From the NCBI GenBank assembly GCA_000004695.1, contig CM000154.2, forward strand, positions 4,544,001-4,608,000: a DNA stretch of 64,000 nt, read 5' to 3'. Origin of the DNA: Dictyostelium discoideum (lineage: Eukaryota). Within the stretch, counting starts at the first letter, position 1; the number at the start of each line of letters is the position of its first letter. A program made the translations under genes and the position numbers. Below are positions 1 to 46,701 of the stretch, one piece after another. The notes beneath the pieces were generated by a model. The model searched no databases, was not told where the DNA came from, and saw nothing but the letters and a program-made list of their open reading frames with translations.

Positions 1-3000
1 AATCCAAATTATCAAGTTGAAATCGAATATACATGGAGTGATATTTCACCTGCATTCATAGCAGATGCAAAGAATAAAATCAATAAAATCATTAATGATG
101 CTGCTATAACAAATGGATTAAATGTTATTTATCGTTCATTAACAATCGATGAATCATTGCTTGAAAATCAAGCAATTAAACCATCATATTATGATTTCGT
201 TATAATGTCAAATGTTCTTCATGTTGTTAAAAATATTAAACAAGCTGTAGAACAAATGTATCAATTGTTAACACCGAATGGTCAATTGCTATTTATAGAA
301 CCACCTTATAAATCAGTTCTAATCGATTCAATCATTGGTTCATTTGAACAATGGTGGTCATTCACTGATACTGATATTAGAAAAGATAGATGTGGTATGT
401 CTCAACAAAGTTGGTATCAATTATTAAAGACATGTAATTTTAAAGACATTTTAATGTCAAAAGAATGCATCTTTGTTGGGTCAGTAATACATGCACAAAA
501 ACCACCAATTTCTTTATTGAATTCTCAACCAAAACATGATAATATAATTATATATGGTGGTGGTGGTAATTTAAGTTTTGTAGAAAACATCAAATTAGAT
601 TCAAATTCAAAAAGTTTAATTCAAATTGAAACTATTCAAGAATTTAATCAATTATTAAGTCAATCAACAATTACAAATGATTCAATAATTTATTTCATAA
701 AAACATTAGAAACATTATCATTGGATAATTATAAACAAATAACTCTTGAATATATTGAAATCAATCAAAGACTATTACAAATCAATAGTTTATGTAAACA
801 TGTATTAATTGTTAGTGATTCAAGAAAAACTAACTATTTAGCATCATCAGTTGTTGGTGCTGCAAGATACTTTGATGAATTCCAACAATTGAAATTACAC
901 ACATTAGATTTTGATTATGATTCAACTCAAAATTATATAAATTCAAAAAATAACAAAATGGTTCAATTCATTAATATCTTGGTGGACTCCAAAACAAATG
1001 TTCATAAAGAAATGATTATAATTAATAACAAAGTATATTATGAAATAGTTCAAAAAGAGAAAAATCTAAAACTAAAATACAATTCAGAATCTTTTGAAAA
1101 TCAAAATAATTTAATGTGTTCATTATCACCAAATTTAGAATATCAATTACAATCAAAACAAATTAAATTAAGAGATAATCAAGTTGAAGTTAAAACAATT
1201 GCAACTGGTATCAATTATAAAGATTATTTAAATTTTAGCGGTTCAAATAATAATAATGGTGATGACAATACAGGTTTACCACAATTTGGATATGAATTTT
1301 CAGGTATTATAACAAGAGTTGGTAATAATGTAAAAGATTATAAAGTTGGTGATAATGTATTTGGTTTATCAAATTCTTGTACATCATCCCACATTGTTAC
1401 AAATTTTAAAAATATTCAATTAAAACCTTCAAACATAAGTCATAACGAAGCATCATCAATTCCAATTGATTATTTAACATCATTTATGAGTTTATTTAAT
1501 GTTGGTAGTTTAAATATTGAAGATAATGAATCAATTCTAATTCATTTAGGTAGTGATAGTTTTGGATTATCAACATTTGAAATATTAAAATGGAAAGGTT
1601 TTAAATCAAATTTATTCGTTACAGTTGATTTGGACGAAACTAAACAATATCTTCTAGATAGATATGGTGATTTTATTACTGGAATTTATTCAAACACAGA
1701 TAAAAGTTATGTTACAGAAATAAAAAACGAATTAATTAAATTAGGTTCAAAAAAGAAAGGAGTAGATTTAATATTAAATACATTACCAAGTGATTTTATG
1801 GATTCAAATTTCGAGTTATTAACAAAGAGTGGTAGAATAATTGATTTAACTTCAAATCATTTAAATCAAAGTGAATTTTTAAAAAATATCAATTTTAAAT
1901 ATAACCATGGTTACCACAACTTTCAGTTATCATTAATTCAAAAAAATAAAATACAAAAATGTTTATATGAAATTTCACATGCTATTGAAAATGGAGAATT
2001 AAAAACTATTCCAATTAAAGAATTTACAAATTTAAATATTAAAGATGCCATCAAATACATTACCAACGGTAACATTGAAAAAATTACAGTTAGTCATGAT
2101 CATGAAATTTATAGTGATATTATTTATAGATCTTTAGATGAAAAAGAGTTTTCAATATTAAAATCAAATTATCAAATTAATTCAAATAATTTAGGTAAAA
2201 ACATATTAATTACAGGTCAATCAGGTATTATTTTAGAAATATTAAAATGGATCATTAAATATTCAAATATTAACACAATTGAAAATGTTATTATTCTTTC
2301 AAGATCATCATTAAAATGGGAATTAGAATTATTAATTAATCAAACTAAACTATCAAATAATAATATTAAATTTCATTTCAAGAGTGTTGATGTCGGTGAT
2401 AGTGAACAAGTTGATAATGCAATCAATGAAATATTAAATGAAAATCAACAAATTACAAATATTGATTCAATATACCATTTTGCATTTCAACAAATTACAT
2501 GTAAAGTTCAAGAAATCAATATGAAACATTTAGATATTTCACATGGAGCAAAATCAATGGGTGCAGTTAATTTACATAATCAATCAATTAAACGTAATTG
2601 GAAATTAATTAATTTTGTTATGGCTTCTTCTGCACTTTCATTAATAGGTTCAACAGATCAATGTACATATGCCTGTGCAAACCTATTATTAGATTCATTT
2701 TCAAAATACAGAGAATCACTTGGATTACCATCTGCTTGTATTAACCTTGGGTCAATTGAATCAACTGGTTTCGTTTCAAAGAATGAATCAATTTCAGAAT
2801 TTACAGATGGCATTGGTTACGTTCCAACACCTATCAATCTAGTTTTAGGTCTTTTAGATTTACAAATTCAAAATGCAGGTAAATTTACGAATTCAATGCT
2901 TTCAAATTTAATATCATCAAAATTTAAAAATATTCAACAAACATCATTATTTCTAAAATTTGATTACTTGATGAATTTAAATGACAACAGTGAACAAACT

Positions 3001-3267
3001 AAAAAAGAGAATATTGGAAATAAAAACATTGATGAATTATTCATTGAGAAAGTTTCAGAATTATTTTCAACGGATCAATCAAGAATAAATAAAAATCTTA
3101 GATTAATTGATTATGGCGCAGATTCATTAATAATAGTTCAATTAAAGAATTGGATAGATAAAGAAATTGGTATAAATTTAATAACAATTAAACAACTTCA
3201 AAACAATACAATTAATATTTCAATCAAAATGATATTAAATTCATTAATGAAAAATAATCAAATATAG
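1..3267 (+). CDS. Type I polyketide synthase, copy A. 3' part only; the 5' end lies outside the window. Domains present: C-terminal MT, ER, KR and ACP.
   Basis: A continuous 1036-aa ORF. It is ~97% identical at nucleotide level to positions 10465..13735 of the downstream PKS. It has the MT C-terminal region, the ER motifs ([25 protein letters not shown]), the KR Rossmann motif ([14 protein letters not shown]) and the ACP motif ([12 protein letters not shown]). It ends at a TAG created by a 1-bp deletion relative to copy B (aatcaaatatag vs aatcaaaatatag). The reductase domain is deleted. Confidence 0.85.
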   Translation, partial: NPNYQVEIEYTWSDISPAFIADAKNKINKIINDAAITNGLNVIYRSLTIDESLLENQAIKPSYYDFVIMSNVLHVVKNIKQAVEQMYQLLTPNGQLLFIEPPYKSVLIDSIIGSFEQWWSFTDTDIRKDRCGMSQQSWYQLLKTCNFKDILMSKECIFVGSVIHAQKPPISLLNSQPKHDNIIIYGGGGNLSFVENIKLDSNSKSLIQIETIQEFNQLLSQSTITNDSIIYFIKTLETLSLDNYKQITLEYIEINQRLLQINSLCKHVLIVSDSRKTNYLASSVVGAARYFDEFQQLKLHTLDFDYDSTQNYINSKNNKMVQFINILVDSKTNVHKEMIIINNKVYYEIVQKEKNLKLKYNSESFENQNNLMCSLSPNLEYQLQSKQIKLRDNQVEVKTIATGINYKDYLNFSGSNNNNGDDNTGLPQFGYEFSGIITRVGNNVKDYKVGDNVFGLSNSCTSSHIVTNFKNIQLKPSNISHNEASSIPIDYLTSFMSLFNVGSLNIEDNESILIHLGSDSFGLSTFEILKWKGFKSNLFVTVDLDETKQYLLDRYGDFITGIYSNTDKSYVTEIKNELIKLGSKKKGVDLILNTLPSDFMDSNFELLTKSGRIIDLTSNHLNQSEFLKNINFKYNHGYHNFQLSLIQKNKIQKCLYEISHAIENGELKTIPIKEFTNLNIKDAIKYITNGNIEKITVSHDHEIYSDIIYRSLDEKEFSILKSNYQINSNNLGKNILITGQSGIILEILKWIIKYSNINTIENVIILSRSSLKWELELLINQTKLSNNNIKFHFKSVDVGDSEQVDNAINEILNENQQITNIDSIYHFAFQQITCKVQEINMKHLDISHGAKSMGAVNLHNQSIKRNWKLINFVMASSALSLIGSTDQCTYACANLLLDSFSKYRESLGLPSACINLGSIESTGFVSKNESISEFTDGIGYVPTPINLVLGLLDLQIQNAGKFTNSMLSNLISSKFKNIQQTSLFLKFDYLMNLNDNSEQTKKENIGNKNIDELFIEKVSELFSTDQSRINKNLRLIDYGADSLIIVQLKNWIDKEIGINLITIKQLQNNTINISIKMILNSLMKNNQI

Positions 3268-3639
3268 ATGACAATAATAATACATACAATAGATATTAAC
3301 CCAATGAAAATCAAAACATTACTAGAATTATCAACAGATAATGGGTGATCTTGAAATTTTTTATTTAAATAAGATTCAAATTTTACTTTGCGTTTTTTTT
3401 ATTTAATATTTTTAGATTTGGGTAGTTTTGGACATTATAAAATAAAAAATCTAAATCTAAATAAAATAAAAAATACAAATCTAAATTATTCTTTTTTATA
3501 AAAAAAAAAAAAAAAAAAAAAGTCAAATCAACATAAAAACATCTTCAGACATTATTTTTAAAATTGAATTTATAAAAAAAATTTTATTTATAAAAATAAA
3601 ATTTTTTCTCAATTAATATAGATATTTCAAAACTAAATT

Positions 3640-5095
3640 ATGAATAATTTTAAAAAATATAAATTTAATAGATAAAGGTGTTGCAATTGTTGGGGTGGGG
3701 TTCAGAATTCCTTCTGGTAATTATGAAAATTCAATTAGTTCACCAGATTATTAAATTTAATAATTTAAAGAATGGTTTTGATGGTGTTAGTAGTACATCA
3801 GAAAGATGGAGTGACAATTTTCATAAATTAGGTGAAATTAGTAGTCCAAATGCAGGTTTATTACCATTTAATGAATGCAAATCATTCGATCCATTATTTT
3901 TTGGTATTAATCCATCCGATGCTCATCAGATTGATCCTCAACAAAGATTATTATTAAAATGTACATGGGAAGTATTAGAAGATGCATCTATTGATCCAAT
4001 TTCAATTCGTGGTACAAATACTTCAGTTTTCATTGGTTCTTCAACTATCGATTATCAACTGTTTCGATTTTAATGGTCCATCATTTTCAATGCATGTTCA
4101 TCATCATTAAATGTTGTTTAATGTTTAAATATCAATGCTTTTTACCAAATATTCATTTCAAAAATCCAAATCCATTAATTAAATTCAATGAATGGAATTT
4201 AAAAGTTGTAACATCACCAATTCCATTCAACAAAAGAAATAATGAATTACCAGTTTCAATGATGATTAATAACTTTGGTTTAACAGGTTCAAATTGTTGT
4301 TTACTTTTAACAGAATATAAAAAACAAGATTATGAATCATATGAAACTATCTACAAAAATGATAATAGTAAAAATATATTAATACCATTTTCAGCAAATT
4401 CAACAAATTCATTAAATCAATACCAATCAAAATTTAAAAATATAAATAATAATCAATTCAATTTTATTGATTTTACCGCAAATCAAATTTATTCAAAATC
4501 AAATTATCTTTATCAAAGATCGGTTGTAATCGCAAGTAATTCAAATGAACTTTTTGAAAAAATTTTAAATAAAAAACAAATTCGAAATAAAAATTCAATC
4601 ATCTCAAATATGTCATTCAAAGGAAAGAATCCAATTACAATTTTTGTTTTTTCAGGTCAAGGATCACAATATCCTAAAATGGCTTTAGAATTATATAATA
4701 ATGAAGTAATCTTTAAAAAATCAATTGATTTAATCGATTCAAAATTATCAAAGTACTATGGTTATTCAGTATGGGAGAAGGTAAAAAAAATCAAAGATTA
4801 TGATACTACTTCCATTCATGATCCAACTATTGTACAACCAGCAGTGTGTATGTTTTCAGTATCATTATTTGAATTGTATTGCCATTGGGGAGTAAATCCA
4901 TCATTTATTCTTGGTCATAGTATTGGTGAAATTTCAACATTATATTGTTCTGGAATAATCGATTTAGATACATTTTATCACAGATCAATAGCACAAACTA
5001 AAACACACTGTAATGGTGGGCATCCACTGATATTGATATTAGGAAAAATAGATGTAGTATGTCTCAACAAAGTTGGTATCAATTATTAAATAACA
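3640..5095 (+). pseudogene. Mosaic PKS pseudogene fragment. It joins a KS N-terminus, a KS C-terminus/AT piece and an MT piece, with large internal deletions.
   Basis: 3640..4060 matches 6105..6540 of PKS-B, including the promoter-proximal sequence, but the ATG context is destroyed (atgaataattttaaaaaatataaatttaatagataa gives an immediate stop). Position 4060 jumps to the equivalent of ~6600 and then ~7305, so the KS active-site Cys (DTACSSSL) and His motifs are missing. 4110..5040 matches 7305..8200 (AT domain, GHSIGEISTLYCSG). 5040..5095 matches the MT region at 10845..10920. The ORF track shows the pieces in different frames (3678..4073 and 4073..5089). Confidence 0.8.
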
Positions 5096-5766
5096 GTAAT
5101 TATAAAGACATTGCAATGTGCATGCTAAAATTAAAAAGATTCCTTTATTGTATCCAAAAAATAAAAGTGAAAAAAAAAAAAAAAAGAATGGTTTAAAAAA
5201 AAAAAAAAAAGGGTTAAAAATATAATAAATTAATTTTTAATAAATGTTGAGAGAAAGTATTTAAATTTTTTTTTTATTTTATTTTTTATTTTTTTTTTTT
5301 TTCCTATTCTCTGGGATTATAATCTGAAAAAGGGTTTTTTTTTTTTAAACAAATATGGGCTTACTAATAATTTAAATTGGTAAAAAAAAACAGAAAGGAT
5401 GATATATACAAAAAAAAAAATATTTTTTGTCCTTGAATATAATTTTTTCAAATATTATATCATTGTTGTTTTATAATTAATTTGAATTTGTATAATTTTA
5501 TGAATTTTATCTGGTGTGAATCTGCAAAAAATTTTATATTTTTTTTTATTTTTTTATCTGGTGGAAATCTACAAAAAAAACAACAATAAATCTATAGATT
5601 TAAAAAATTAAAAAATCGTCATTATTTTTTTTTTTGGTATGGCTTTCTCTAAACGAATCCCCACGAAAAAAAATTATAAACTTCTAATTTTCTAAGGCCA
5701 CAGTGCTGCACAAAATTACTTTTCACTTTATAGTGCTGAAATTTTTACATCCAACCCCCAAAATTT

Positions 5767-5803
<37 letters not shown>

Positions 5804-6114
5804 CATATGTACAAAAAAATAAATAAAAATAAATAATTTAACAACAAAATGAACACAAAAACAAAATACATTTCTTCAAGTATTATTTTTAAAATAAATC
5901 AAATGTGCTGTTAGTTAATCTCCTGAATAAAAATTTTTTATAAATTTTACCACATAAAGCCTTTAAAAAAAGTTTGTGTTTAATAATTTTAATTAATAAA
6001 ATCATGTAAATAATGAAAGTTTTTTAAAAAAAATATAAATTTAAAACAACAATATTTAATTTTAATAAAAAATTTTCTTCACTAATTTTGATATTTCAAA
6101 ACTACTAAATACCT

Positions 6115-9100
6115 ATGGGTAATTTAAAAAATATAAATTTAAAAGAGAAAGGAGTTGCAATTGTTGGTATTGGATTTAGAATTCCTTCTGGTAATAATGA
6201 AAATTCAATTAGTTCACCAGATGATTTATTTAATAATTTAAAGAATGGTTTTGATGGTGTTAGTAGTACATCAGAAAGATGGAGTGACAATTTTCATAAA
6301 TTAGGTGAAATTAGTAGTCCAAATGCAGGTTTATTACCATTTAAAGAATGGAAATCATTCGACCCATTATTTTTTGGTATTAATCCATCTGAAGCTCCAT
6401 TAATCGATCCTCAACAAAGATTATTATTAAAATGTACATGGGAAGCATTAGAAGATGCATCTATTGATCCAATTTCAATTCGTGGTACAAATACTTCAGT
6501 TTTCATTGGTTCTTCAACTATTGATTATTTACATACAAATAAACATCAAGACTCAGTTTTAAAGAATGCAATAGCACAATCAACCAGTGCGATTTCAAAT
6601 AGAATTTCATACTGTTTCGATTTTAATGGTCCATCACTATCAATTGATACTGCATGTTCATCATCATTAAATGCAGTTTCTCAAGGTTATCATTCAATAT
6701 TAAATGGTACTTCCAATATGTCAATTGTTGGTGGTGTAAATTTAATATTAGGTAAGGATTATTATTTTTTTTTTAAAATTAAAAATACACTTATTAATTA
6801 AAATTTATTTTTATTAGATGTTGATATTATAAAAGCATATTCGATTTTAAGCATGTTAAGTAAAACACATGGTAAATGTAAAACATTTGATGAAAGTGGC
6901 GATGGTTTTACACGTGGTGAATGTGTCGGTGTTGTAGTTTTAAAGAATTTACAAGATGCAGTAAAAGATGGTAATAGAATTTATTGTGTAATTAATGGTT
7001 CAAGTTCAAATGTTGATGGTAATGGTAATATGGATAAAGTTAACTTTTATTCACCATCAAAACAATCACAATTTAATAATATTAATTCAGCATTTAAGTC
7101 AACAAATGACAAACTCTCGATTAATGATATTCAATATATCGAAGCACATGGTACCGGTACTAAAACAGGCGATCCAATTGAAACTGAAGCAATTTCAATG
7201 GCTTTTAAAAATAGAGATAAATCAACACCAATTCTAATTGGTTCAATTAAAAGTAATATTGGTCATTGTGAAGCTGGTTCAGGTGTTGCATCATTAATCA
7301 AATGTTGTTTAATGTTTAAATATCAATGCTTTTTACCAAATATTCATTTCAAAAATCCAAATCCATTAATTAAATTCAATGAATGGAATTTAAAAGTTGT
7401 AACCTCACCAATTCCATTCAACAAAAGAAATAATGAAAAACCAGTTTCAATGATGATTAATAACTTTGGTGTAACAGGTTCAAATTGTTGTTTACTTATT
7501 TCAGAATTTAAAAATAACAATAACTTTAAAGAGAATATTAATTTAGAATCTCAAAGTGTTAATGATAGAGTGTTAATACCATTCTCAGCAAATTCATCAA
7601 ATTCATTAAATCAATACCAATCAAAATTTAAAAATATAATTAATAATCAATTCAATTTTATTGATTTTACCGCAAATCAAATTTATTCAAAATCAAATTT
7701 TCTTTATCAAAGATCAGTTGTAATTGCAAGTAATTCAAATGAACTTTTTGAAAATATCTCAAATAAAAAACAAATTCAAACTAAAAATTCAATCATCTCA
7801 AATATGTCATTCAAAGGAAAGAACCCAATTACAATTTTTGTTTTTTCAGGTCAAGGATCACAATATCCTAAAATGGCTTTAGAATTATATAATAATGAAG
7901 TAATCTTTAAAAAGTCAATTGATTTAATCGATTCAAAATTATCAAAGTACTATGGTTTTTCAGTATGGGAGAAGGTAAAAACAATCAAAGATGATGACTT
8001 AACCTCAATACATGATCCAATTTTTGCCCAACCAGCACTATGTATGATTTCAGTATCACTATTTGAATTATATTACCATTGGGGAGTAAATCCATCATTT
8101 ATTCTTGGTCATAGTCTTGGTGAAATTTCAGCATCATATTGTTCTGGAATGATTGATTTAGATACATTCTGTTATACAGTTTATCAAAGATCAATAGCAC
8201 AATCTAAAACAAATGGTTGTGGTAGAATGTTATCAATTAATATCAGTGATGAAGAATTTAAATCAATGTATTCTCAAAAGTATCCACAAATTGAAATCGC
8301 ATGTTATAATTCACCTCAATCAATTGTTGTGGCAGGTAATGAATCAATATTAAATGAAATTTCAAAAGAATTAAAAGAAAAAGAAATTTTCACCACAATG
8401 TTAGGTTCATTATCATCATTCCATACAAGTAGCCAACAATGTACAAAAGATAGTATATTACAACTAAACATTGAAAGTAATCAACCAAAAGTACCAATAT
8501 TTTCAACAGTTACAACAAATTTATTTAATGAATCAAATCGATTTAATTCACAATATGTTTATGATAATATTATCAAACCAGTTAAATTCACACAAACAAT
8601 TTCAAATATTTATAAACATATCGAATCAAATCAATTAAATAATGAAATTGTATTCATTGAAATTGCACCACATCCAACATTATTATTTTATATTAAACAA
8701 ATGGTACCATCAAGTTTAAATGAATCAGTTTCAGTTTATTCAGCACTTCATAAGAAAAAGAATGATGTCGAAGAGTTTCAACAAACCATTTCAAATTTAT
8801 ATTGTCAAAATGGATATAATATTAATTTTAAATGTCAATTTAATAATAAAAAATCAAATCAATCAATAAATTTACCACTTTACCAATGGGATGAAGAATT
8901 ATATTTCACTCAAGCCCAAACTCTCGAACAACATAGAAAAGAAGGACCACCAATTGACCATCTTGGTACATCAAACTCTTATAATTCACCATTTAATAAT
9001 TCATATAGAACATCAATCGATATAAAGAATAAACCATTTCTATATCTTAAAGGCCATATGGTTAAAGGTAAATACTACTTCCCAGGTTGTGGTTATATTG

Positions 9101-12100
9101 ATAATATTATTCAACTTTATAAAAATCAAGATATTTTTATTAGTTTTATTGAATTTAAAACACCATTAATTTTAATTGAAGGTATCAATCAATATTTACA
9201 AACAAACATTCAACAAACTGGTAAAAGTGAATATCGTGCACAATTTCATTTCAAAGATCAAAAATCAAATGAATGGATTCAATCATCAAATGCAAATTTC
9301 CAATTATTAGATCATGGTAATGATATACCACCAAAGTATAATATTAAAGAAATTATTGAAAACAAATGTAATTTAAGCAAATTAACAAAGAATGAACTTT
9401 ATACACATATAAAATCAAAAACTGGTTTAAATTATACTGGAGTTTTTCAAGGTGTTACTGAATGTTATATAGGTGGTGATTGTACATTATCAGTTGTATC
9501 TTTAGAATCTCAAACAAACTCATTTTTAAATATACCAATATTAGATACTTGTTTACATGGAATGATAGGATTGTCAAATGATCAATGTCAAATTGTATTT
9601 GATAAAGCTATTGGATTTAAATATTATTCATCAAACATACCAGCAAATTTAAAAGATTATAAAGATAGTGTTTATGTTTATTCCCATTTAAAATCAAAAA
9701 GTGTTGATTCATTCTTTGGATCTATAATAGTAATGTTATCAGATGGTTCAGTTTTATATGAAATTGAAGAAGTTGTTTGTAAATCATTAATTCCAATCAA
9801 AGATTCACTTAAAATTGAGTATCCTAATGATGAATTATACAAAGTTCATTTACAATCAAAAGATTCTCCAATTCCAACACCATCATCATTCAAATCAATT
9901 ATTTATGAAAATGATTTCTTCCATTCTGCACTTAATATTCCAGAAGATTTATTCAAATATATTTCAACATTATTTTATAAAGATATTATAAAAAGATGTC
10001 CAGAAATTAATATCAATAAAATTAATTCTCATAGTGTTAATGAAATTATTTCAAGTTTCAGTAAAATTTCAAAACACGAAAGATTATTTAGATTTGTATT
10101 TGAAACAATAAAAGAGAATGGTATTCTTAATAGTTTGGAAGAAAATGATGATGCTTATTTCGAATTTAATGAAGTAATTATCAAATCGTCAAGAATTATT
10201 TCAAAATTATTATTCCCACTAGAAAGTGATAATGATAATGAAGATTTACCTCAATCATTATTTCAAAATGGTTTAATGGATAAAATTTATAAATGCAGAT
10301 ATTTAAGAAAGAAGAATCAAATGATTTCACATGTTATTAAACATTCAATTAAAGAGATTATTAATAATAATATTATAATTAGAATTTTAGAATTTGGAGG
10401 AGGTACTGCATCATTATCAGTTGAAGTTATTGAAGAAATAATTGCATTACTTCAAGAGAATCCAAATTATCAAGTTGAAATCGAATATACATGGAGTGAT
10501 ATTTCACCTGCATTCATAGCAGATGCAAAGAATAAAATCAATAAAATCATTAATGATGCTGCTATAACAAATGGATTTAATGTTATTTATCGTCCATTAA
10601 AAATTGATGAATCATTGATAGAAACTCAATCAATTAATCCATCATATTATGATTTCGTTATAATGTCAAATGTTCTTCATGTTGTTAAAAATATTAAACA
10701 AGCTGTAGAACAAATGTATCAATTGTTGACTCCAAATGGTCAATTACTATTTTTAGAGCCACCTTATAAATCAGTTCTAAATGATTCAATAGTTGGTTCA
10801 TTTGAACAATGGTGGTCATTCACTGATACTGATATTAGAAAAGATAGATGTAGTATGTCTCAACAAAGTTGGTGTCAATTATTAAAGACATGTAATTTTA
10901 AAGACATTGCAATGTCTAAAGAATGCATCTTTGTTGGTATTGTAATACATGCACAAAAACCACCAATTTCTTTATTGAATTCTCAACCAAAACGTGATAA
11001 TATAATTATATATGGTGGTGGTAATCCAATTTTTGTAGAAAACATCAAATTATATTCAAATTCAAAAAGTTTAATTCAAATTGAAACTATTCAAGAATTT
11101 AATCAATTATTAAGTCAATCAACAATAACAAACGATTCAATCATTTATTTCATAAAAACATTAGAAACATTATCATTGGATAATTTTAAACAAATAACTC
11201 TTGAATATATTGAAATCAATCGAAAATTATTACAAATCAATAGTTTATGTAAACATGTATTAATTGTTAGTGATTCAAGAAAAACTAACTATTTAGCATC
11301 ATCAGTTGTTGGTGCAGCAAGATACTTTGATGAATTCCAACAATTGAAACTAAATACTTTAGATTTTGATTATGATTCAACTCAAAATTATATAAATTCA
11401 AATAATAAAGATATGGTTCAATTCATTAATATCTTGACAGATTCCAAAACAAATGTTCATAAAGAAATGATTATAATTAATAATAAAGTATATTATGAAA
11501 TAGTTCAAAAAGAGAAAAATCTAAAATTAAAATACAATTCAGAATCTTTTGAAAATCAAAATAATTTAATGTGTTCATTATCACCAAATTTAGAATATCA
11601 ATTACAATCAAAACAAATTAAATTAAGAGATAATCAAGTTGAAGTTAAAACAATTGCAACTGGTATCAATTATAAAGATTATTTAAATTTTAGTGGTTCA
11701 AATAGCAACGGTGATGACAATACAGGTTTACCACAATTTGGATATGAATTTTCAGGTATTATAACAAGAGTTGGTAATAATGTAAAAGATTATAAAGTTG
11801 GTGATAATGTATTTGGTTTATCAAATTCTTGTACATCATCTCACATTGTTACAAATTATAAAAAAATTCAAATAAAACCTTCAAACCTAAGTCATAACGA
11901 AGCATCATCAATTCCAATTGATTATTTAACATCATTTATGAGTTTATTTAATATTGGTAGTTTAAATATTGAAGATAATGAATCAATTTTAATTCATTTA
12001 GGTAGTGATGGTTTTGGATTATCAACATTTGAAATATTAAAATGGAAAGGTTTTAATTCAAATTTATTCGTTACAGTAAATTCATATGAAACTAAACGAT

Positions 12101-14976
12101 ATCTTCAAGATAATTACGGTGATTTTATTACTGGAATTTATTCAAACACAGATAAAAGTTATGTTACAGAAATAAATAAAAAATTAATTAAATTAGGTTC
12201 AAAAAAGAAAGGAGTAGATTTAATATTAAATACATTACCAAGTGATTTTATGGATTCAAATTTCAAGCTATTAGCAAAGTATGGTAGAATAATTGATTTA
12301 ACGTCAAATCATTTAAATCAAAGTGAATTTTTAAAAAATATCAATTTTAAATATAATCATGGTTACCATAACTTTGAGTTATCATTAATTCAAAAAAATA
12401 AAATTCACAAATGTTTATATGAAATTTCAAATGCTTTTGAAAATGGAGAATTAAAAACCATTCCAATTAAAGAATTTACAAATTTAAATATTAAAGATGC
12501 CATCAAATACATTACCAACAATAAAATTGAAAAAATTACAGTTAGTCATGATCATGAAATTTATAGTGATATTATTTATAGATCTTTAGATGAAAAAGAG
12601 TTTTCAATATTAAAATCAAATTATCAAATTAATTCAAATAATTTAGGTAAAAACATATTAGTCACAGGTCAATCAGGTATTATTTTAGAAATATTAAAAT
12701 GGATCATTAAATATTCAAATATTAATACAATTGAAAATGTTATTATTCTTTCAAGATCATCATTAAAATGGGAATTAGAATTATTAATTAACGAAACTAA
12801 ACTATCAAATAATAATATTAAATTTCATTTCAAGAGTGTTGATATCGGTGATAGTGAACAAGTTGATAATGCAATCAATGAAATATTAAATGAAAACCAA
12901 CAAATTACAAATATTGATTCAATATACCATTTTGCATTTCAACAAATTACATGTAAAGTTCAAGAAATCAATATGAAACATTTAGATATTTCACATGGAG
13001 CAAAATCAATGGGAGCAATTAATTTACATAATCAATCAATTAAACGTAATTGGAAATTAATTAATTTTGTTATGGCTTCATCTGCAATTTCATTAATAGG
13101 TTCAACTGATTTATGTACATATGTTTGTGCAAATGCATTATTAGATTCATTTTCAAAATACAGAGAATCACTTGGATTACCATCAACTTGCATTTGCCTT
13201 GGTGCAATTGAATCAACTGGTTTCGTTTCAAAGAATGAATCAGTTTCAGTATTTTTAGACGGTGGTGGTTTCCATCCAACACCAATCAATCAAGTTTTAG
13301 GCCTTTTAGATTTACAAATTCAAAATGCTGGTAAATTCACAAATTCAATGCTTTCAAATTTCAAACCCTCAAAATTTAAAAATAATCAACAAACATCATT
13401 ATTTTTAAAATTTGATTACTTGATGAATTTAAAAAACAATAGCGAAGAAACCAAAATAGAGAATACTGGAAATAAGAACATTGATGAATTATTCATTGAG
13501 AAAGTTTCAGAATTATTTTCAATGGATGAATCAAAGATAAATAAAAATCTTAGATTAATCGATTATGGTGCAGATTCACTAATAATAGTTCAATTAAAAA
13601 ATTGGATAGATAAAGAAATTGGTATAAATTTAATAACAATTCAACAACTTCAAAACAATACAATTAGCACTTCAATGAAAATGATATTAAATTCATTAAT
13701 GAAAAATAATCAAAATATAGATGACAATAATAAAGACCTACCTTCAAATAGAATCGATTATTGGAAGAATGAAATGAAATTTGAAGAGTCTATTAAACCA
13801 ATATCAAATGAAATACAATCAAGGAATAATTCAGAAAAAATTATTTTATTAACCGGTACAACTGGTTTTTTAGGTGGTTTCTTATTATTCAATATGGTAA
13901 GATTAGATTCATGTAAATTAATTTATTGTTTAATTAGAAATAAAAGTAAATCAAATAATCCATTAGATGAAATTATAAATAATTTAAAATATCATCAACT
14001 TTATGAAAAATTAAATCAATCACAAATTTCAAAGATTATACCAATTATTGGTGATTTATCAATGAATAAACTTGGTCTTTCAAATGATGATTATGAAACA
14101 ATTTCAAAAAATGTAAATTTAATAATCAATCCAGGTGCAGATATTAATCAAAAATCAAGTTACCAAGATTGTAAATTAGTAAATGTAAATGGAGTAAAAG
14201 AAATTATTAAATTATCATTATCATCATTAAAACAAAGGATACCAATTGTAAACTTTTCATCATTTTCAGTATTTTTCAATCAATCACTTGATAAGAATTT
14301 TGATGAATCAGTTTTACCATCAATTGATAATATTGATAATTTACCAACAGAATATATGAAGAGTAAAGTTGTTGGTGAATATATTTTATTGGAAGCTTCT
14401 AAAAAATATAATATACCATCAATTTTAATTAGACCACCAAGTATATTTTTAAATCCAGAAACAGGTATTGGTCATATTAGTGACTTCTCTTTATTATCAA
14501 TCCAATCATGTTATGAATTAGGTTATTATCCAAATCAATTTGAAAATGATTTTATTTTAATTAATACAATTACATGGTTATCAAATAATATTACAAATAT
14601 TATAATGAATGATAATTGTTGGACAGATTCAAAAATGAATATTTATAATGTACATGGTAAACAAATTCAATCAAGTTTAATAATTAAACCACTTGAAAAA
14701 CATTTCAATTGTAAACATATCAATACTAATGATTGGATTGATATGGTAAATAATTCAAATAAAAAATCATGTATTAAATTAAAATCATTCCATTCTTTGG
14801 ATATAATTTTAAAAAGTGAAAACAATAGATATAAACCCAATGAAAATCAAAGCATATCATTATCAACCAAATCATTACTAGAATCAATGGGCTCATACAA
14901 CACTGATCTTGAAATCACTGATAAAATGATTATTTCTCATATTAATCAAATTTTTAATTTAAATGAAACAATTTAA
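6115..14976 (+). CDS. Highly reducing type I polyketide synthase, copy B. Domains: KS-AT-DH-MT-ER-KR-ACP plus a C-terminal reductase (R). Exons 6115..6751 and 6818..14976, with a 66-bp intron at 6752..6817. About 2931 aa.
   Basis: - KS: N-terminus [26 protein letters not shown], active site [11 protein letters not shown], His motifs [14 protein letters not shown] and [10 protein letters not shown].
- AT: [14 protein letters not shown].
- DH: HxxxGxxxxP-type, [19 protein letters not shown].
- MT: [12 protein letters not shown].
- ER: [12 protein letters not shown]...[12 protein letters not shown].
- KR: [14 protein letters not shown].
- ACP: [14 protein letters not shown].
- C-terminal NAD(P)-binding reductase: [15 protein letters not shown].
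- Intron donor G|GTAAGG at 6752, acceptor TTATTAG| at 6817. The joined frame reads ...[33 protein letters not shown], the conserved KS motif. Confidence 0.9.
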
Positions 14977-15094: not shown

Positions 15095-16064
15095 TTAACC
15101 TCTTGAAATATCTCTACCGAAAACACTACTCTTTAACCAATCGAAAGAGACTAAAGCACGATTTCTAACACTTAAAAGTTTAGTGAAATATACACTTCTC
15201 CAGAGGTAATAAGTGATATAACCTTCAGAGACAGTTGTTGAATGATCACCTTTGAATTCAGCTACAGCTTGATGATCACCAACATAAGCTAAAGTACCCA
15301 TATGTTTATATTTAAATAATGGTTTCTCTTTGACGGCTTCCTCAAAGCTTTTATTTGAACCAGTGATTGAATTGAAAAGGTTTAATTTCTCTTGTTGTTT
15401 TTCTTTTTCCTCTTTATGTGCATCTGGATTCTCTCTCTTTTTAATGAGATCATTATTCATTTCCTCTGCCAATTGATTGAATAATCTGCCTAAATAACGA
15501 CCTTGTTGAGAAGCAACTTGAGCAGTTTGAGCCAATGGTTTTGATGGATTAATTGAAGCATCACCAATTGACCAAATTCCATCAGTACCAGCCACTCTGA
15601 AATAATCATCAACAACCAAACCTCTTCTATTGTTTTGAATATTTGGTCCGATCGATTGCATAATTTGAGTGGTAATCTTTCTTGGTGTATTACCGGTTGC
15701 CCATACTAATAAACCGTATGGATGAATTGATTCCTCTTTGGTTGTAGTATTCTTTACTGTAATCTCTTTCTCTCTAACTCCAACAACTGCTGTCTTTGTC
15801 CAAATCTTTGTATTGTTTGAACTTTGAAGACGTTTTTCAACATGATCAATAATCTTCTTATCAAAAATTGTTAAAATATGTGGAAGTGCTTCAACTAATG
15901 TAACATTAATTCTCTTTGCTAATGGATATGTTTTTAATAAATCTGATTGAAGGAAATCATTTAATTCTGCTGTAAATTCAACACCAGATGGACCTAAAAT
16001 AAAAATAAAAAAATAAAAAATAAAAAATAAAAAAATTTGAAAATTAAAAATGATTAGGACAGCG

Positions 16065-16098
<34 letters not shown>

Positions 16099-17055
16099 GG
16101 AAAAATATATAAATAAACTTACCACCACCAACTACAACGAAATTTAATAAACGATCAATTTCTTTTTCAGGTTGACCAGGATAAGAAGCAGTTTCAAGAC
16201 AATCAATAATTTTATCTCTAATGTTACGAGTATCATTAATTTCTTTTAAGAAACAAGCATTCTCTTTTACACCTGGAATACCAAAGGTTTGATTATCGGC
16301 ACCGACACCAACGATCAAATGATCATACTCTAATTCGAATTCTGAAACTTCACCTTTTACAGCACTATTATCATAACATTTAACCTTTTTAGAAACTGGA
16401 TCAACTGATAAACATTCTGCTTCATAAAAAGTTGCATCCTCTGCATCTGCTCTCTTACAATACTTTCTAATTGGTTCCATAATTGATCTAACTTCAACTG
16501 TACCTGTTGTACCACCAACTAATAATGGTGTAAATAAAAAGTAATTTCTTTTTTTTTTTTTTTAAATTTAAAATAAATTAGTAAATAAGATTAAAATAAA
16601 AATAAAATTAAATAATTTAATTACCTTGGTGAAATGATTGTAACATCAAATAAATCAGTATGTAATTTTCTTAAGAAACATAATGAACCCCAACCAGTAC
16701 CAAGAATGACAACTTTTGGTCTTTTCTTTCTTTCACTTTCTGGTAATCTAGTTCTAAATTTATCAGTGACTGAATCGAAATCATCATTAACCACCATATC
16801 AATTATCCAAAAACCACCTAAACCTGCTACTGCTAATCCACCCCAAAATGCAAATTTATTCATTTTCTTTTTTGGTTCTTGTTCTTTTTGTTGTTGTTGT
16901 TGTTGATTTTGTTCATTATTATTACTATTATCAGTTGATGTCGAAAATCTTTGTATAAATTGTGTTTGATTATTTTTACATGCGACAATACGATTTGTTG
17001 ACACTGTTTTAATTAATTGATTTTTATTAACTTTTGAAAATGCTCTTGAAATCAT
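15095..17055 (-). CDS. Type II NADH:quinone oxidoreductase (NDH-2; alternative or external NADH dehydrogenase, mitochondrial). Exons 17055..16625, 16547..16123 and 15993..15095.
   Basis: - Exon 1 carries the first dinucleotide-binding motif, PKVVILGTGWGS...VTIISPR.
- Intron 1: donor AG|GTAATT, acceptor AAAAG|A. It restores ISP-R-NYFLFTPLL, the conserved NDH-2 motif.
- Intron 2: donor G|GTAAGT, acceptor TATTTTAG|GT. It restores the second Rossmann motif VVVGGGPSGVEFTAEL.
- The C-terminus (YLWRSVYFTKLLSVRNRALVSFDWLKSSVFGRDISR) is typical of the NDI1/NDE family.
- Splice phases check: 431 + 425 + 899 nt, about 584 aa. Confidence 0.85.
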
Positions 17056-17867
17056 TTTTTAATTTATTTATTTTATTAATTTATTTATTTTATTAATTTG
17101 GTTATTTTTTATTTATTTATTTATTTTTGGAAAAAAAAAAAAAAATTAAAAGGTTTTAATTTTTATAAATCTTTGAAAAAAAAAAAAAAAAAATTGAAAA
17201 ATAAAAATAGAAAAATAAAAAAAAAGTTATTATTATAACTTTATAATTAGTTGTAGTTTGTGAAGTGAGAAAAAAAAATGAAGAAAAAAAAAAAAAAAAA
17301 AATTCAAAAAAAAAATAAAAAAAATATAATACCACAAAAAAAAAAAAAAAAACAGTAGGACCTGCATAGGTCGGGGCAAATTTTACGTATTTGCCACCAT
17401 ACTGTTAGATTTTTATTTTTTTTTTTTTATTTTTTTTTTTTTTTTTTCGGAAATGAAATGGCTTTCGTTTTTGATCACCTGGTATGAAAAAAATAAAAAT
17501 TATGCACCCAACCCAAAAACAAAAAAAAAAAAAAAAAAAATTAAAAAAAATATTAAAAAAAAAATTTTTGAAATCAAATATGATATTTTCCCATATTAAT
17601 TAATTTGGGAAATAATATTTTTTTTATTTATCAATTTTATTATATTTTTATTTTATTTTATTTTATATTTTATATTATATTATTTACAAAAATAGAATTT
17701 TTATTTTTTATTTTTTATTTTTTTTAATTCTGCAATTATTTTTTAATTAAAAAAAAATGAAAGGGTGATTACTATATAAATAAAAACAAAACAAAAAATA
17801 AAAGGGCTCTACTTTTTTTGTTAATTTAATTTAATTTTTTTATTTTATTTTTTTTTTTTTTTTTTTT

Positions 17868-17906
<39 letters not shown>

Positions 17907-17967
17907 AAAACGAATTTTTTTTTTTTTATTTTAATTTTTATTTTTCTGAAATAATTGTAATAATAAT

Positions 17968-18531
17968 ATGTTAAAGTTTTGTAGTAAGACTAAAATACTA
18001 TTTGGTAGTTTGAATGGTGGAATCATTTCAACATCCATTTTTAAAAGAGATTTTTCAAAAATTCCAATTAGAACTTCAATTTTTAATAATCAAACCAGCA
18101 TTCCAAAAAGAATGATGATGATAAAAATTGAAGGTGAAGGAACTGTAAAAAAAGAATTAACAAATGAAGAGAAACAAAAGATTAAAGAGAAAAAGAAAAA
18201 AGAACAAATTGAAAGAAATGCATTAAAAAAACAGAATCGTGCTGCAATGATTGAAAGATCAAAAGAACTTAAAAAGACTAAAAAGGAAAAAGATATCCAC
18301 TCAAATGAAAAGAAATCTCAAAATCCCAAAAATAAAGATAAAGATGATGCCGATGATTACTATGATGAAGATGACGAAGATGATGAAGATGCACATGAAA
18401 AAAAAGGCGAAAGTGATGAAATTATAGATTTTGCTGAAGGTGATGGAGAAACATACTTTCCAAAAAAAGAAAAAGTTAAAGTTAAACCCAATAAAAAGAA
18501 ACCAAACAATGATAAAGGTTTTTGTAGATGA
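17968..18531 (+). CDS. Hypothetical Lys/Glu/Asp-rich protein, 187 aa.
   Basis: Intact ATG ORF. It has a structured N-terminus and then a charged low-complexity tail (KEKKKKEQIERNALKK...DDEDDEDDED). I recognise no domain. Low-complexity ORFs in AT-rich DNA can be spurious. Confidence 0.35.
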   Translation: MLKFCSKTKILFGSLNGGIISTSIFKRDFSKIPIRTSIFNNQTSIPKRMMMIKIEGEGTVKKELTNEEKQKIKEKKKKEQIERNALKKQNRAAMIERSKELKKTKKEKDIHSNEKKSQNPKNKDKDDADDYYDEDDEDDEDAHEKKGESDEIIDFAEGDGETYFPKKEKVKVKPNKKKPNNDKGFCR

Positions 18532-18796
18532 TTTTAATATTCCAATGTTAAAAAAAATTAAAAATTAAAAATTAAAAATTAAAAATTAAAAATTAAAAAT
18601 TAAATAATAATAAAAAAAAAAAAGATATTATAATTTAAATTATTATTTATTTTTTTATTTTTTTAAATCTGATCAATTTGTTTGGGTTGAAAAAAATAAA
18701 AAAAATTAATTTAAAAAAAAAAAAATGGAAAAAATTGAAAAAAAATAAAATCTAAAAAAAAAAGATACAGACAAAATGGTATCAGTTTTTTTTTTT

Positions 18797-18823
18797 TGTT
18801 TTGTTTTGTTTTGTTTTGTTTTG

Positions 18824-18851
<28 letters not shown>
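18797..18851. repeat. (GTTTT)n minisatellite, ~11 units (GTTTT)n, abutting the assembly gap.
   Basis: Read directly from the sequence. Confidence 0.9.
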
Positions 18852-18854
<3 letters not shown>

Positions 18855-18918
18855 TTTATTTTATTTTGTTTTTTTTTTTTTATATTTTTATATTTTTATA
18901 TTTTTATTTATATATTTT

Positions 18919-19018
18919 NNNNNNNNNNNNNNNNNNNNNNNNNNNNNNNNNNNNNNNNNNNNNNNNNNNNNNNNNNNNNNNNNNNNNNNNNNNNNNNNNN
19001 NNNNNNNNNNNNNNNNNN
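18919..19018. other. Assembly gap: a run of 100 N.
   Basis: Literal n characters. Just upstream, at 18797..18851, is a (GTTTT)n minisatellite. Confidence 1.
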
Positions 19019-46601: not shown

Positions 46602-46701
46602 NNNNNNNNNNNNNNNNNNNNNNNNNNNNNNNNNNNNNNNNNNNNNNNNNNNNNNNNNNNNNNNNNNNNNNNNNNNNNNNNNNNNNNNNNNNNNNNNNNN
46701 N
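46602..46701. other. Assembly gap: a run of 100 N.
   Basis: Literal n characters. Confidence 1.

Follow-up and report, generated by a model that had tools for sequence, protein, structure and literature searches.

Loss of the terminal thioester reductase from pks8/35 in a tandem polyketide synthase array of Dictyostelium discoideum

According to PMC12828403, 21 of the 40 polyketide synthases (PKSs) of Dictyostelium discoideum carry a C-terminal off-loading domain. Two of these domains are chalcone synthases and the others are most probably thioester reductases (TRs), and Pks9/36 and Pks6 are reported there among the synthases with a C-terminal TR. A figure legend in the same paper states that the synthases with an off-loading domain are marked and that chromosomally adjacent, highly homologous genes are linked. 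Pks5, with the domain order KS-AT-DH-MT-ER-KR-ACP, makes dictyodene (PMC9618038; PMC12625978), and knockout of pks7 resulted in the loss of a few metabolite features (PMC12625978). The present analysis deals with two neighbours of these genes in the same array, pks8/35 and pks9/36, which lie at the start of a window of 64,000 nucleotides (nt) from chromosome 2 of D. discoideum AX4 (GCA_000004695.1, CM000154.2, positions 4,544,001 to 4,608,000; G+C content 22%). The window opens inside pks8, which stops just after its acyl carrier protein (ACP) domain, and the downstream gene pks9 continues from the ACP into a TR.

Both genes, picked out as PKS-A and PKS-B in a sequence-only reading of the window, are already annotated in the reference genome. 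PKS-A is the 3' end of pks8/35, as window 1-3264 translates, at 100% identity, into residues 1427-2514 of the protein P0002 (DDB_G0271618 / DDB_G0295667, 'Probable polyketide synthase 8/35', D. discoideum AX4, 2514 aa). PKS-B is pks9/36, its spliced sequence (6115-6751 joined to 6818-14976) matching exactly P0074 (DDB_G0271530 / DDB_G0295659, 'Probable polyketide synthase 9/36', 2931 aa). The best explanation overall, with a probability of about 0.8, is that pks8 lost its TR by deletion and has been maintained in the array as an ACP-terminated synthase. An in-frame deletion with a net loss of 1,083 nt took the ACP-TR linker and nearly all of the reductase from a TR-bearing pks8 ancestor. The leftover tail of ~150 nt then decayed, a 1-bp frameshift and small deletions joining a nonsense change. 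The pks8 product would leave as an acid or via a trans-acting enzyme, as is supposed for Pks5.

The deletion is read directly from the alignment of the two genes. Window 1-3280 of pks8 and 10459-13733 of pks9 (both on the plus strand) share 94.6% nucleotide identity, with 170 mismatches and 3 gaps in 3,281 columns, and the amino-acid identity of the aligned part is 92%. The homology proposed at first sight between PKS-A and 10465-13735 therefore stands, while the accompanying figure of about 97% was too high. Only two indels separate the coding bodies, each of 3 nt and each extra in pks8 (555-557 and 1246-1248). Homology breaks off at pks8 3280 / pks9 13733 and resumes at pks8 3286 / pks9 14822, which places the deletion breakpoints, uncertain by a few bases, on either side of five filler bases at 3281-3285. 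The pks9 segment with no counterpart in pks8 (13734-14821, 1,088 nt) contains the ACP-reductase linker and most of the reductase. Once the 5 filler bases are subtracted, a net 1,083 nt have gone. As this equals 361 codons exactly, the deletion is in frame and the frame of the linker runs into that of the reductase tail.

Beyond the junction, 32 of 34 bases match, followed by gapped matches to about pks8 3376 / pks9 14967. The pks8 segment 3286-3376 (plus strand), called the relic below, is what decay has left of the last ~150 nt of TR coding sequence, corresponding to the 3' end of the pks9 reductase at 14822-14967, a tail that is conserved in other TRs. It carries an AAA-to-TAA stop in the reductase frame at 3297-3299 and several small deletions. 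In BLAST against reductase DNA the relic gave E=7e-11, and the best value among five other reductase-free 3' flanks was E=0.002. No coding reductase follows the pks8 ACP, where tblastn with the reductase protein finds nothing. The earlier observation that only scraps of the R domain remain after the stop and that about 1.1 kb has gone was thus accurate.

What was lost can be judged from pks9, whose C-terminus directly after the ACP matches PF07993 (E=5.7e-52). The reductase bears the Rossmann or NAD(P)H-binding motif TGTTGFLG at 13852-13875, which fits TGxTGFxG, and the catalytic Tyr-x3-Lys as YMKSK at 14353-14367 (both plus strand), and it matches the solved TR domains of MxaA (4u7w, E=5e-25) and 8v1x (E=3e-23). 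Its alignment with dictyostelid and bacterial TRs spans the whole domain, the last ~50 residues included. Among the reductase-bearing copies the ratio of nonsynonymous to synonymous substitution (dN/dS) of the reductase is 0.13-0.33, a range indicating that the retained domain is under purifying selection. As the pks9 TR looks intact, release of the pks9 product is presumably reductive, and the domain family points to NAD(P)H-dependent reduction to an aldehyde or alcohol. A change of release chemistry between pks8 and pks9 would be a reasonable inference from the domains that each retains.

The relic also gives the direction of the change. The segment after the pks8 junction corresponds to the last ~50 residues of the TR, a C-terminal subdomain conserved in dictyostelid and even in bacterial TRs, and it cannot be an old untranslated tail. 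Being derived from a reductase, it sets the polarity as loss in pks8 and not insertion in pks9: pks8 descends from a TR-bearing gene, and the domain was lost through a deletion of ~1.1 kb. The reverse history, in which pks8 keeps an ancestral ACP-terminated form and pks9 gained its reductase by a 1.09-kb insertion into an older tail, draws on the fact that the closest relatives in D. citrinum, D. firmibasis and D. dimigraforme, together with pks5 and pks7, end at the ACP. It is very improbable nonetheless, for the pks8 segment in question is not only a conserved piece of reductase but one broken by a stop and small deletions. Furthermore, pks9 and D. firmibasis RB653_009810 share 68% identity in the TR, which agrees with the 59-67% of the body, and no closer donor was found in D. 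discoideum.

RB653_009810 (P0079) is a full KS...ACP-TR protein, which a distance tree places as sister to the entire pks5-9 clade. Within D. discoideum it is best matched by proteins of the pks9 type. A recent capture of the pks6/pks9 reductase from another gene was considered and rejected, as the closest outside TR, that of D. firmibasis, is 68% identical against 59-67% in the body and no closer D. discoideum donor came up; the searches for a separate donor in this species, all negative, were made with a lossy word index. The nearest relatives in other species and pks5 are without a reductase. These data fit a clade that was ancestrally reductase-bearing and has lost the domain repeatedly, and an old reductase capture may be the alternative to such vertical retention with repeated loss.

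The stop codon of pks8 has a different origin from the loss of the domain. Where pks9 reads AATCAAAATATAG, pks8 reads AATCAAATATAG, one A having been lost from the A-run (A3 at 3260-3262, A4 at pks9 13712-13715), and this single base puts a TAG in frame at 3265-3267, just as the sequence-only reading had described it. Without the 1-bp deletion the frame would stop 12 codons later at the relic TAA (3297-3299). The frameshift is therefore incidental: it trims 11 residues only and is not the cause of the reductase loss.

With copies 94-95% identical, in a region inside the AX4 chromosome 2 duplication and with N gaps elsewhere in the window, it had to be asked if the pair or the 1-bp deletion is an artefact of assembly or sequencing, produced by collapse or chimerism of near-identical repeats. 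The duplication accounts for the double gene names (pks8/35, pks9/36). A 3.6-Mb contig of a separately made assembly, GCA_054883475.1 (locus L004), is 99.992% identical to window 1-13268 over 13,268 nt, with the same gene order, the same relic and the same bases in the A3 run, and the identical pks8 protein has been deposited from three loci. An independent assembly with the same layout excludes collapse or chimerism for practical purposes, and an artefact of any of these kinds is extremely unlikely. The suspicion that the TAG at 3265 is a sequencing error followed by an intact R domain fails in the same way, since the A3 run recurs in L004 and the pks8 ACP is followed by no intact reductase.

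The part of pks8 within the window (1-3267, plus strand; 1,088 codons and the TAG) runs from the end of the MT through the ER and KR to the ACP, as defined by its identity with P0002 and by Pfam. The ACP lies at 3004-3261, where PF23297 and PF00550 match residues 1002-1087 of the translated part, and its phosphopantetheine-site motif GADSL is at 3115-3129 (plus strand). pks9 (plus strand) consists of exon 1 at 6115-6751, a 66-nt GT..AG intron of phase 1 at 6752-6817, and exon 2 at 6818-14976, which includes the TAA stop and encodes the rest of the KS, then AT, DH, MT, ER, KR, ACP and TR. The in-frame TAA at 6799-6801, by which PKS-B could be taken for a broken copy, lies inside this canonical intron, and the spliced product is exactly Pks9/36. 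It is owing to this TAA that pks9 appears interrupted in raw lists of open reading frames (ORFs). PKS-B was missing from the first protein search, and its treatment as an unannotated gene or pseudogene was dropped when an exact look-up found P0074. That word-index search is lossy, having missed relatives of 90-100% identity (pks9 itself, pks6, P0001 and P0062), and absences from its lists consequently carry little weight.

Both synthases have the order KS-AT-DH-MT-ER-KR-ACP according to Pfam and motifs. The KS active-site Cys (DTACSS) and His motifs (HGTGT, NIGH) occupy the same positions in the full-length proteins, the pks8 KS lying outside the window and being read from P0002, and the AT GHSxG, the DH HxxxGxxxxP and the ACP GADSL serine are present in both. 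By these domain and motif criteria Pks8 and Pks9 are classed among the FAS-like iterative type I (highly reducing) PKSs of Dictyostelium. No product of Pks8 or Pks9 has been reported in the literature searched.

Whether pks8 is maintained or degrading was left open by the sequence-only reading, which offered simple degradation of PKS-A as its alternative. The idea that pks8 is a dying pseudogene, with the reductase deletion merely the first visible lesion, has several observations on its side: the array sheds genes, a shattered copy adjoins pks8, another lineage has lost both pks7 and pks8 with an MT fragment remaining, and a frameshift, a stop and small deletions have accumulated in the post-ACP region of pks8 itself. 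These lesions, however, are wholly downstream of the ACP, and no decay was seen upstream of the stop. The frame of 2514 codons is open, with KS, AT, DH, MT, KR and ACP motifs identical to those of pks9 and all catalytic motifs intact. At least five indels and a stop are found in the ~100-nt relic versus two indels, both in frame, in the 3.26-kb body. The protein ends in 'MKNNQI' at the very position where functional reductase-free relatives end, for example pks5 ('ILNFLKKINK').

The substitutions agree with this. Pairwise dN/dS between pks8 and pks9 is 0.21-0.32. When private pks8 substitutions were counted against four or seven other copies, the 3' third of the gene showed 16 synonymous and 10 nonsynonymous changes (omega 0.15, P=3e-6), and the full length 47 synonymous and 49 nonsynonymous changes (omega 0.26, P=1e-10), the same as the private-substitution omega of 0.28 for pks9. 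Given that 6.8% of random substitutions create a stop, ~7 stops would be expected under neutrality among the ~105 private pks8 changes, and 0 were observed. These counts indicate purifying selection on pks8 as strong as that on pks9. Taken with the open frame and the intact motifs, they make pks8 most likely a working ACP-terminated synthase, and the dying-gene explanation is unlikely.

Several points weigh against the view that pks8 is maintained. The NG86 site counts behind the P values take no account of mutation bias; the test on the 3' third still gives P=9e-4 when the synonymous fraction is assumed to be 0.30. Gene conversion from intact neighbours could keep a non-functional pks8 looking intact, and the private substitutions may be older than the deletion or have their source in copies outside the sample. 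The diverged lineage represented by locus L005 is without any pks7 or pks8, which makes pks8 dispensable in that lineage. In the literature searched, neither pks8 nor pks9 is backed by evidence on expression, protein or product, and we know of no established release route for the ACP-terminated PKSs of Dictyostelium.

The history of pks8 is bound to that of its array, the order of which was read from assembly GCA_054883475.1. The AX4-type array runs pks5 (2512 aa), pks6 (2924 aa), pks7 (2513 aa), pks8 (2514 aa), a pseudogene relic and pks9 (2931 aa), with a reductase in pks6 and pks9. In the FIW lineage (GCA_054859355.1) an array that is collinear by intergenic synteny consists of a pks5-like gene, P0062, P0003, P0060 and P0078, with the reductase carried by P0062 and P0078. 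In the FIR lineage (GCA_054859385.1, L005 8917-18973) pks7 and pks8 are absent and an MT-domain fragment (17436-18973) lies between the orthologues of pks6 and pks9. The FIR pks6 orthologue is called there in two pieces of 278 and 2331 aa, and the gene content of this lineage is an instance of copy-number variation among assemblies labelled as one species.

Across assemblies labelled D. discoideum (L001, L002, L004, L005 and L006, compared with the window), orthologues are 4-5% diverged at the nucleotide level, which equals the divergence of paralogues within AX4, and a tree built on the 3' 3.2 kb places copies from one genome together. Equal divergence of paralogues and orthologues, together with clustering by genome, speaks for concerted evolution rather than recent duplication, and the pks5-pks9 array shows signs of it. 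The initial picture of a recent tandem duplicate caught in the act of changing its release therefore needs to be divided: the reductase loss by deletion is real, and the recent duplication is too simple a reading, the five-gene array being collinear in lineages that are 4-5% diverged.

Reductase-free copies depart from pks9 homology at three different points. The first, at pks9 13713, is used by pks7 and its FIW orthologue P0003, which have in common the sequence CAATGTSGAAGGGA (L004 6106-6160; L002 7550-7620). The second, at 13733 and followed by the relic, occurs in AX4 pks8 only. The third, at pks9 ~13749-13760, belongs to P0060 and the dispersed copy P0004, which have a common downstream flank (L002 17587-17700; L003 17620-17720) and keep part of the ACP-reductase linker, with no reductase relic. 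A search for such relics in the 3' flanks of pks7, P0003, P0060, P0004 and pks5 gave only noise (E>=0.002), and reductase loss is accordingly demonstrated for pks8 only. In P0060 and P0004 the retained linker hints at a loss; the junction of pks7 and P0003 may be an ancestral reductase-free end or another loss.

P0060 deserves attention as the positional orthologue of pks8, an assignment based on syntenic promoters. This protein of 2525 aa, which falls in the pks8 cluster, was considered as a pks8 allele without the 1-bp frameshift and was rejected in that role, as it ends in 'NLPSNRID' at a different junction. The junctions of P0060 and AX4 pks8 are not derivable from each other, which suggests either two independent losses in one gene or a recombinant AX4 3' end. 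In the latter case an older reductase-free pks8 would have received a TR-bearing 3' end from pks9 or pks6 by conversion or unequal crossover, and this end would later have been deleted again. Such a course is consistent with the clustering of copies by genome, which indicates conversion, with the relic being closest to the pks9 tail of the same genome, and with the P0060 junction, which is shared with the more diverged dispersed copy P0004 and is probably old for that reason. Against it, it takes one step more than two independent deletions from a reductase-bearing ancestor, and no boundary of a conversion tract has been mapped; it is regarded as rather unlikely.

The other branch of the choice can be stated more broadly, as a tentative proposal that falls short of an even chance. 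TRs would be shed repeatedly and independently in the array while gene conversion keeps the bodies alike, and pks8 would have lost its TR by two deletions in two lineages, at 13733 in AX4, where a relic was left, and at 13760 in FIW, where none was left. If so, one and the same polyketide backbone would leave the enzyme by different routes and in different forms in related strains. The locus would then amount to an off-loading experiment made by nature, in agreement with the patchy occurrence of reductases among D. discoideum PKSs. In the favoured account, the array as a whole evolves by gaining and losing copies, by deletion and by gene conversion, and the loss of reductases seems to recur in it.

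pks8 and pks9 are not directly adjacent, as had been assumed in calling them tandem copies. Between them lies the pseudogene of a third PKS copy at 3560-5119 (plus strand), shattered into the promoter with the KS N-terminus, a KS fragment, the KS-AT linker with half of the AT, and a 108-nt MT fragment, beyond which nothing is left. Stops in every frame, a frameshift and three internal deletions disrupt this copy, which is without the KS C-terminus, DH, ER, KR and ACP. Its pieces match pks9 6030-6528, 6594-6679, 7284-8211 and 10808-10915 at 81-90%, and its 5' end is 96.9% identical to that of pks8. Gene calling in GCA_054883475.1 has turned the pseudogene into two small 'genes' (116 and 331 aa), and the FIW lineage does not have it.

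Downstream of pks9, on the minus strand at 15098-17058, is a gene for an NDH-2-type NAD(P)H dehydrogenase with Pyr_redox_2 and NDH2_C domains; an intron-like insert of low complexity seems to interrupt it, and no tie to polyketide synthesis is obvious. Among the other window ORFs scanned, no gene for a tailoring or release enzyme was found, the matches being to the NDH-2-type oxidoreductase, C2, eIF-2B, Sec7 and DUF218. The window contains two assembly gaps, runs of exactly 100 N at 18919-19018 and 46602-46701.

In comparison with what has been described, the feature itself is not new: the genes are annotated and the presence of TRs is already catalogued in PMC12828403. The reductase loss in pks8 affects genes already known and follows a common course, a domain being deleted in a member of a tandem array that gains and loses copies. 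In the literature searched we found neither the relic nor the polarity nor the junction differences described, and what is added here is the polarity and the status of pks8 as a secondary reductase-loss derivative that is still under selection. To our knowledge, the products of most Dictyostelium PKSs are unknown. With ~92% protein identity and the off-loading domain as the main difference, pks8 and pks9 are well suited, as a pair provided by nature, to tests of how the reductase bears on product identity.

The closest described relatives of PKS-B are Pks9/36, which is PKS-B itself, and Pks6, which is 90-97% identical to Pks9 in every domain (92% in the reductase); PKS-A has the same Pks9/Pks6-like body without the reductase. 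In domain order and in the position of the C-terminus, pks8 resembles the ACP-terminated Pks5 and Pks7 of the same array. It differs from both in the reductase relic after its stop, none being present in the pks5 and pks7 flanks, and pks7 departs from pks9 homology at 13713, unlike pks8 at 13733. With the terminal R or TR release domains of PKSs and nonribosomal peptide synthetases, such as that of MxaA (4u7w), and with carboxylic acid reductases, pks9 shares the Rossmann motif, the Y-x3-K and the C-terminal subdomain, from which its activity is predicted; of such a domain pks8 retains only a non-coding remnant of ~90 nt.

The locus as a whole can be set beside the general model of birth-and-death evolution with gene conversion, applied here by inference, with which it shares copy-number differences, pseudogene relics and paralogues that group by genome despite collinear flanks. 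That the junctions differ in other copies and lineages is a hint that the array diversifies its chemistry recurrently by losing the off-loading domain. In contrast to the general model, the variable part here is a whole off-loading domain, and the copies may differ in how their products are released.

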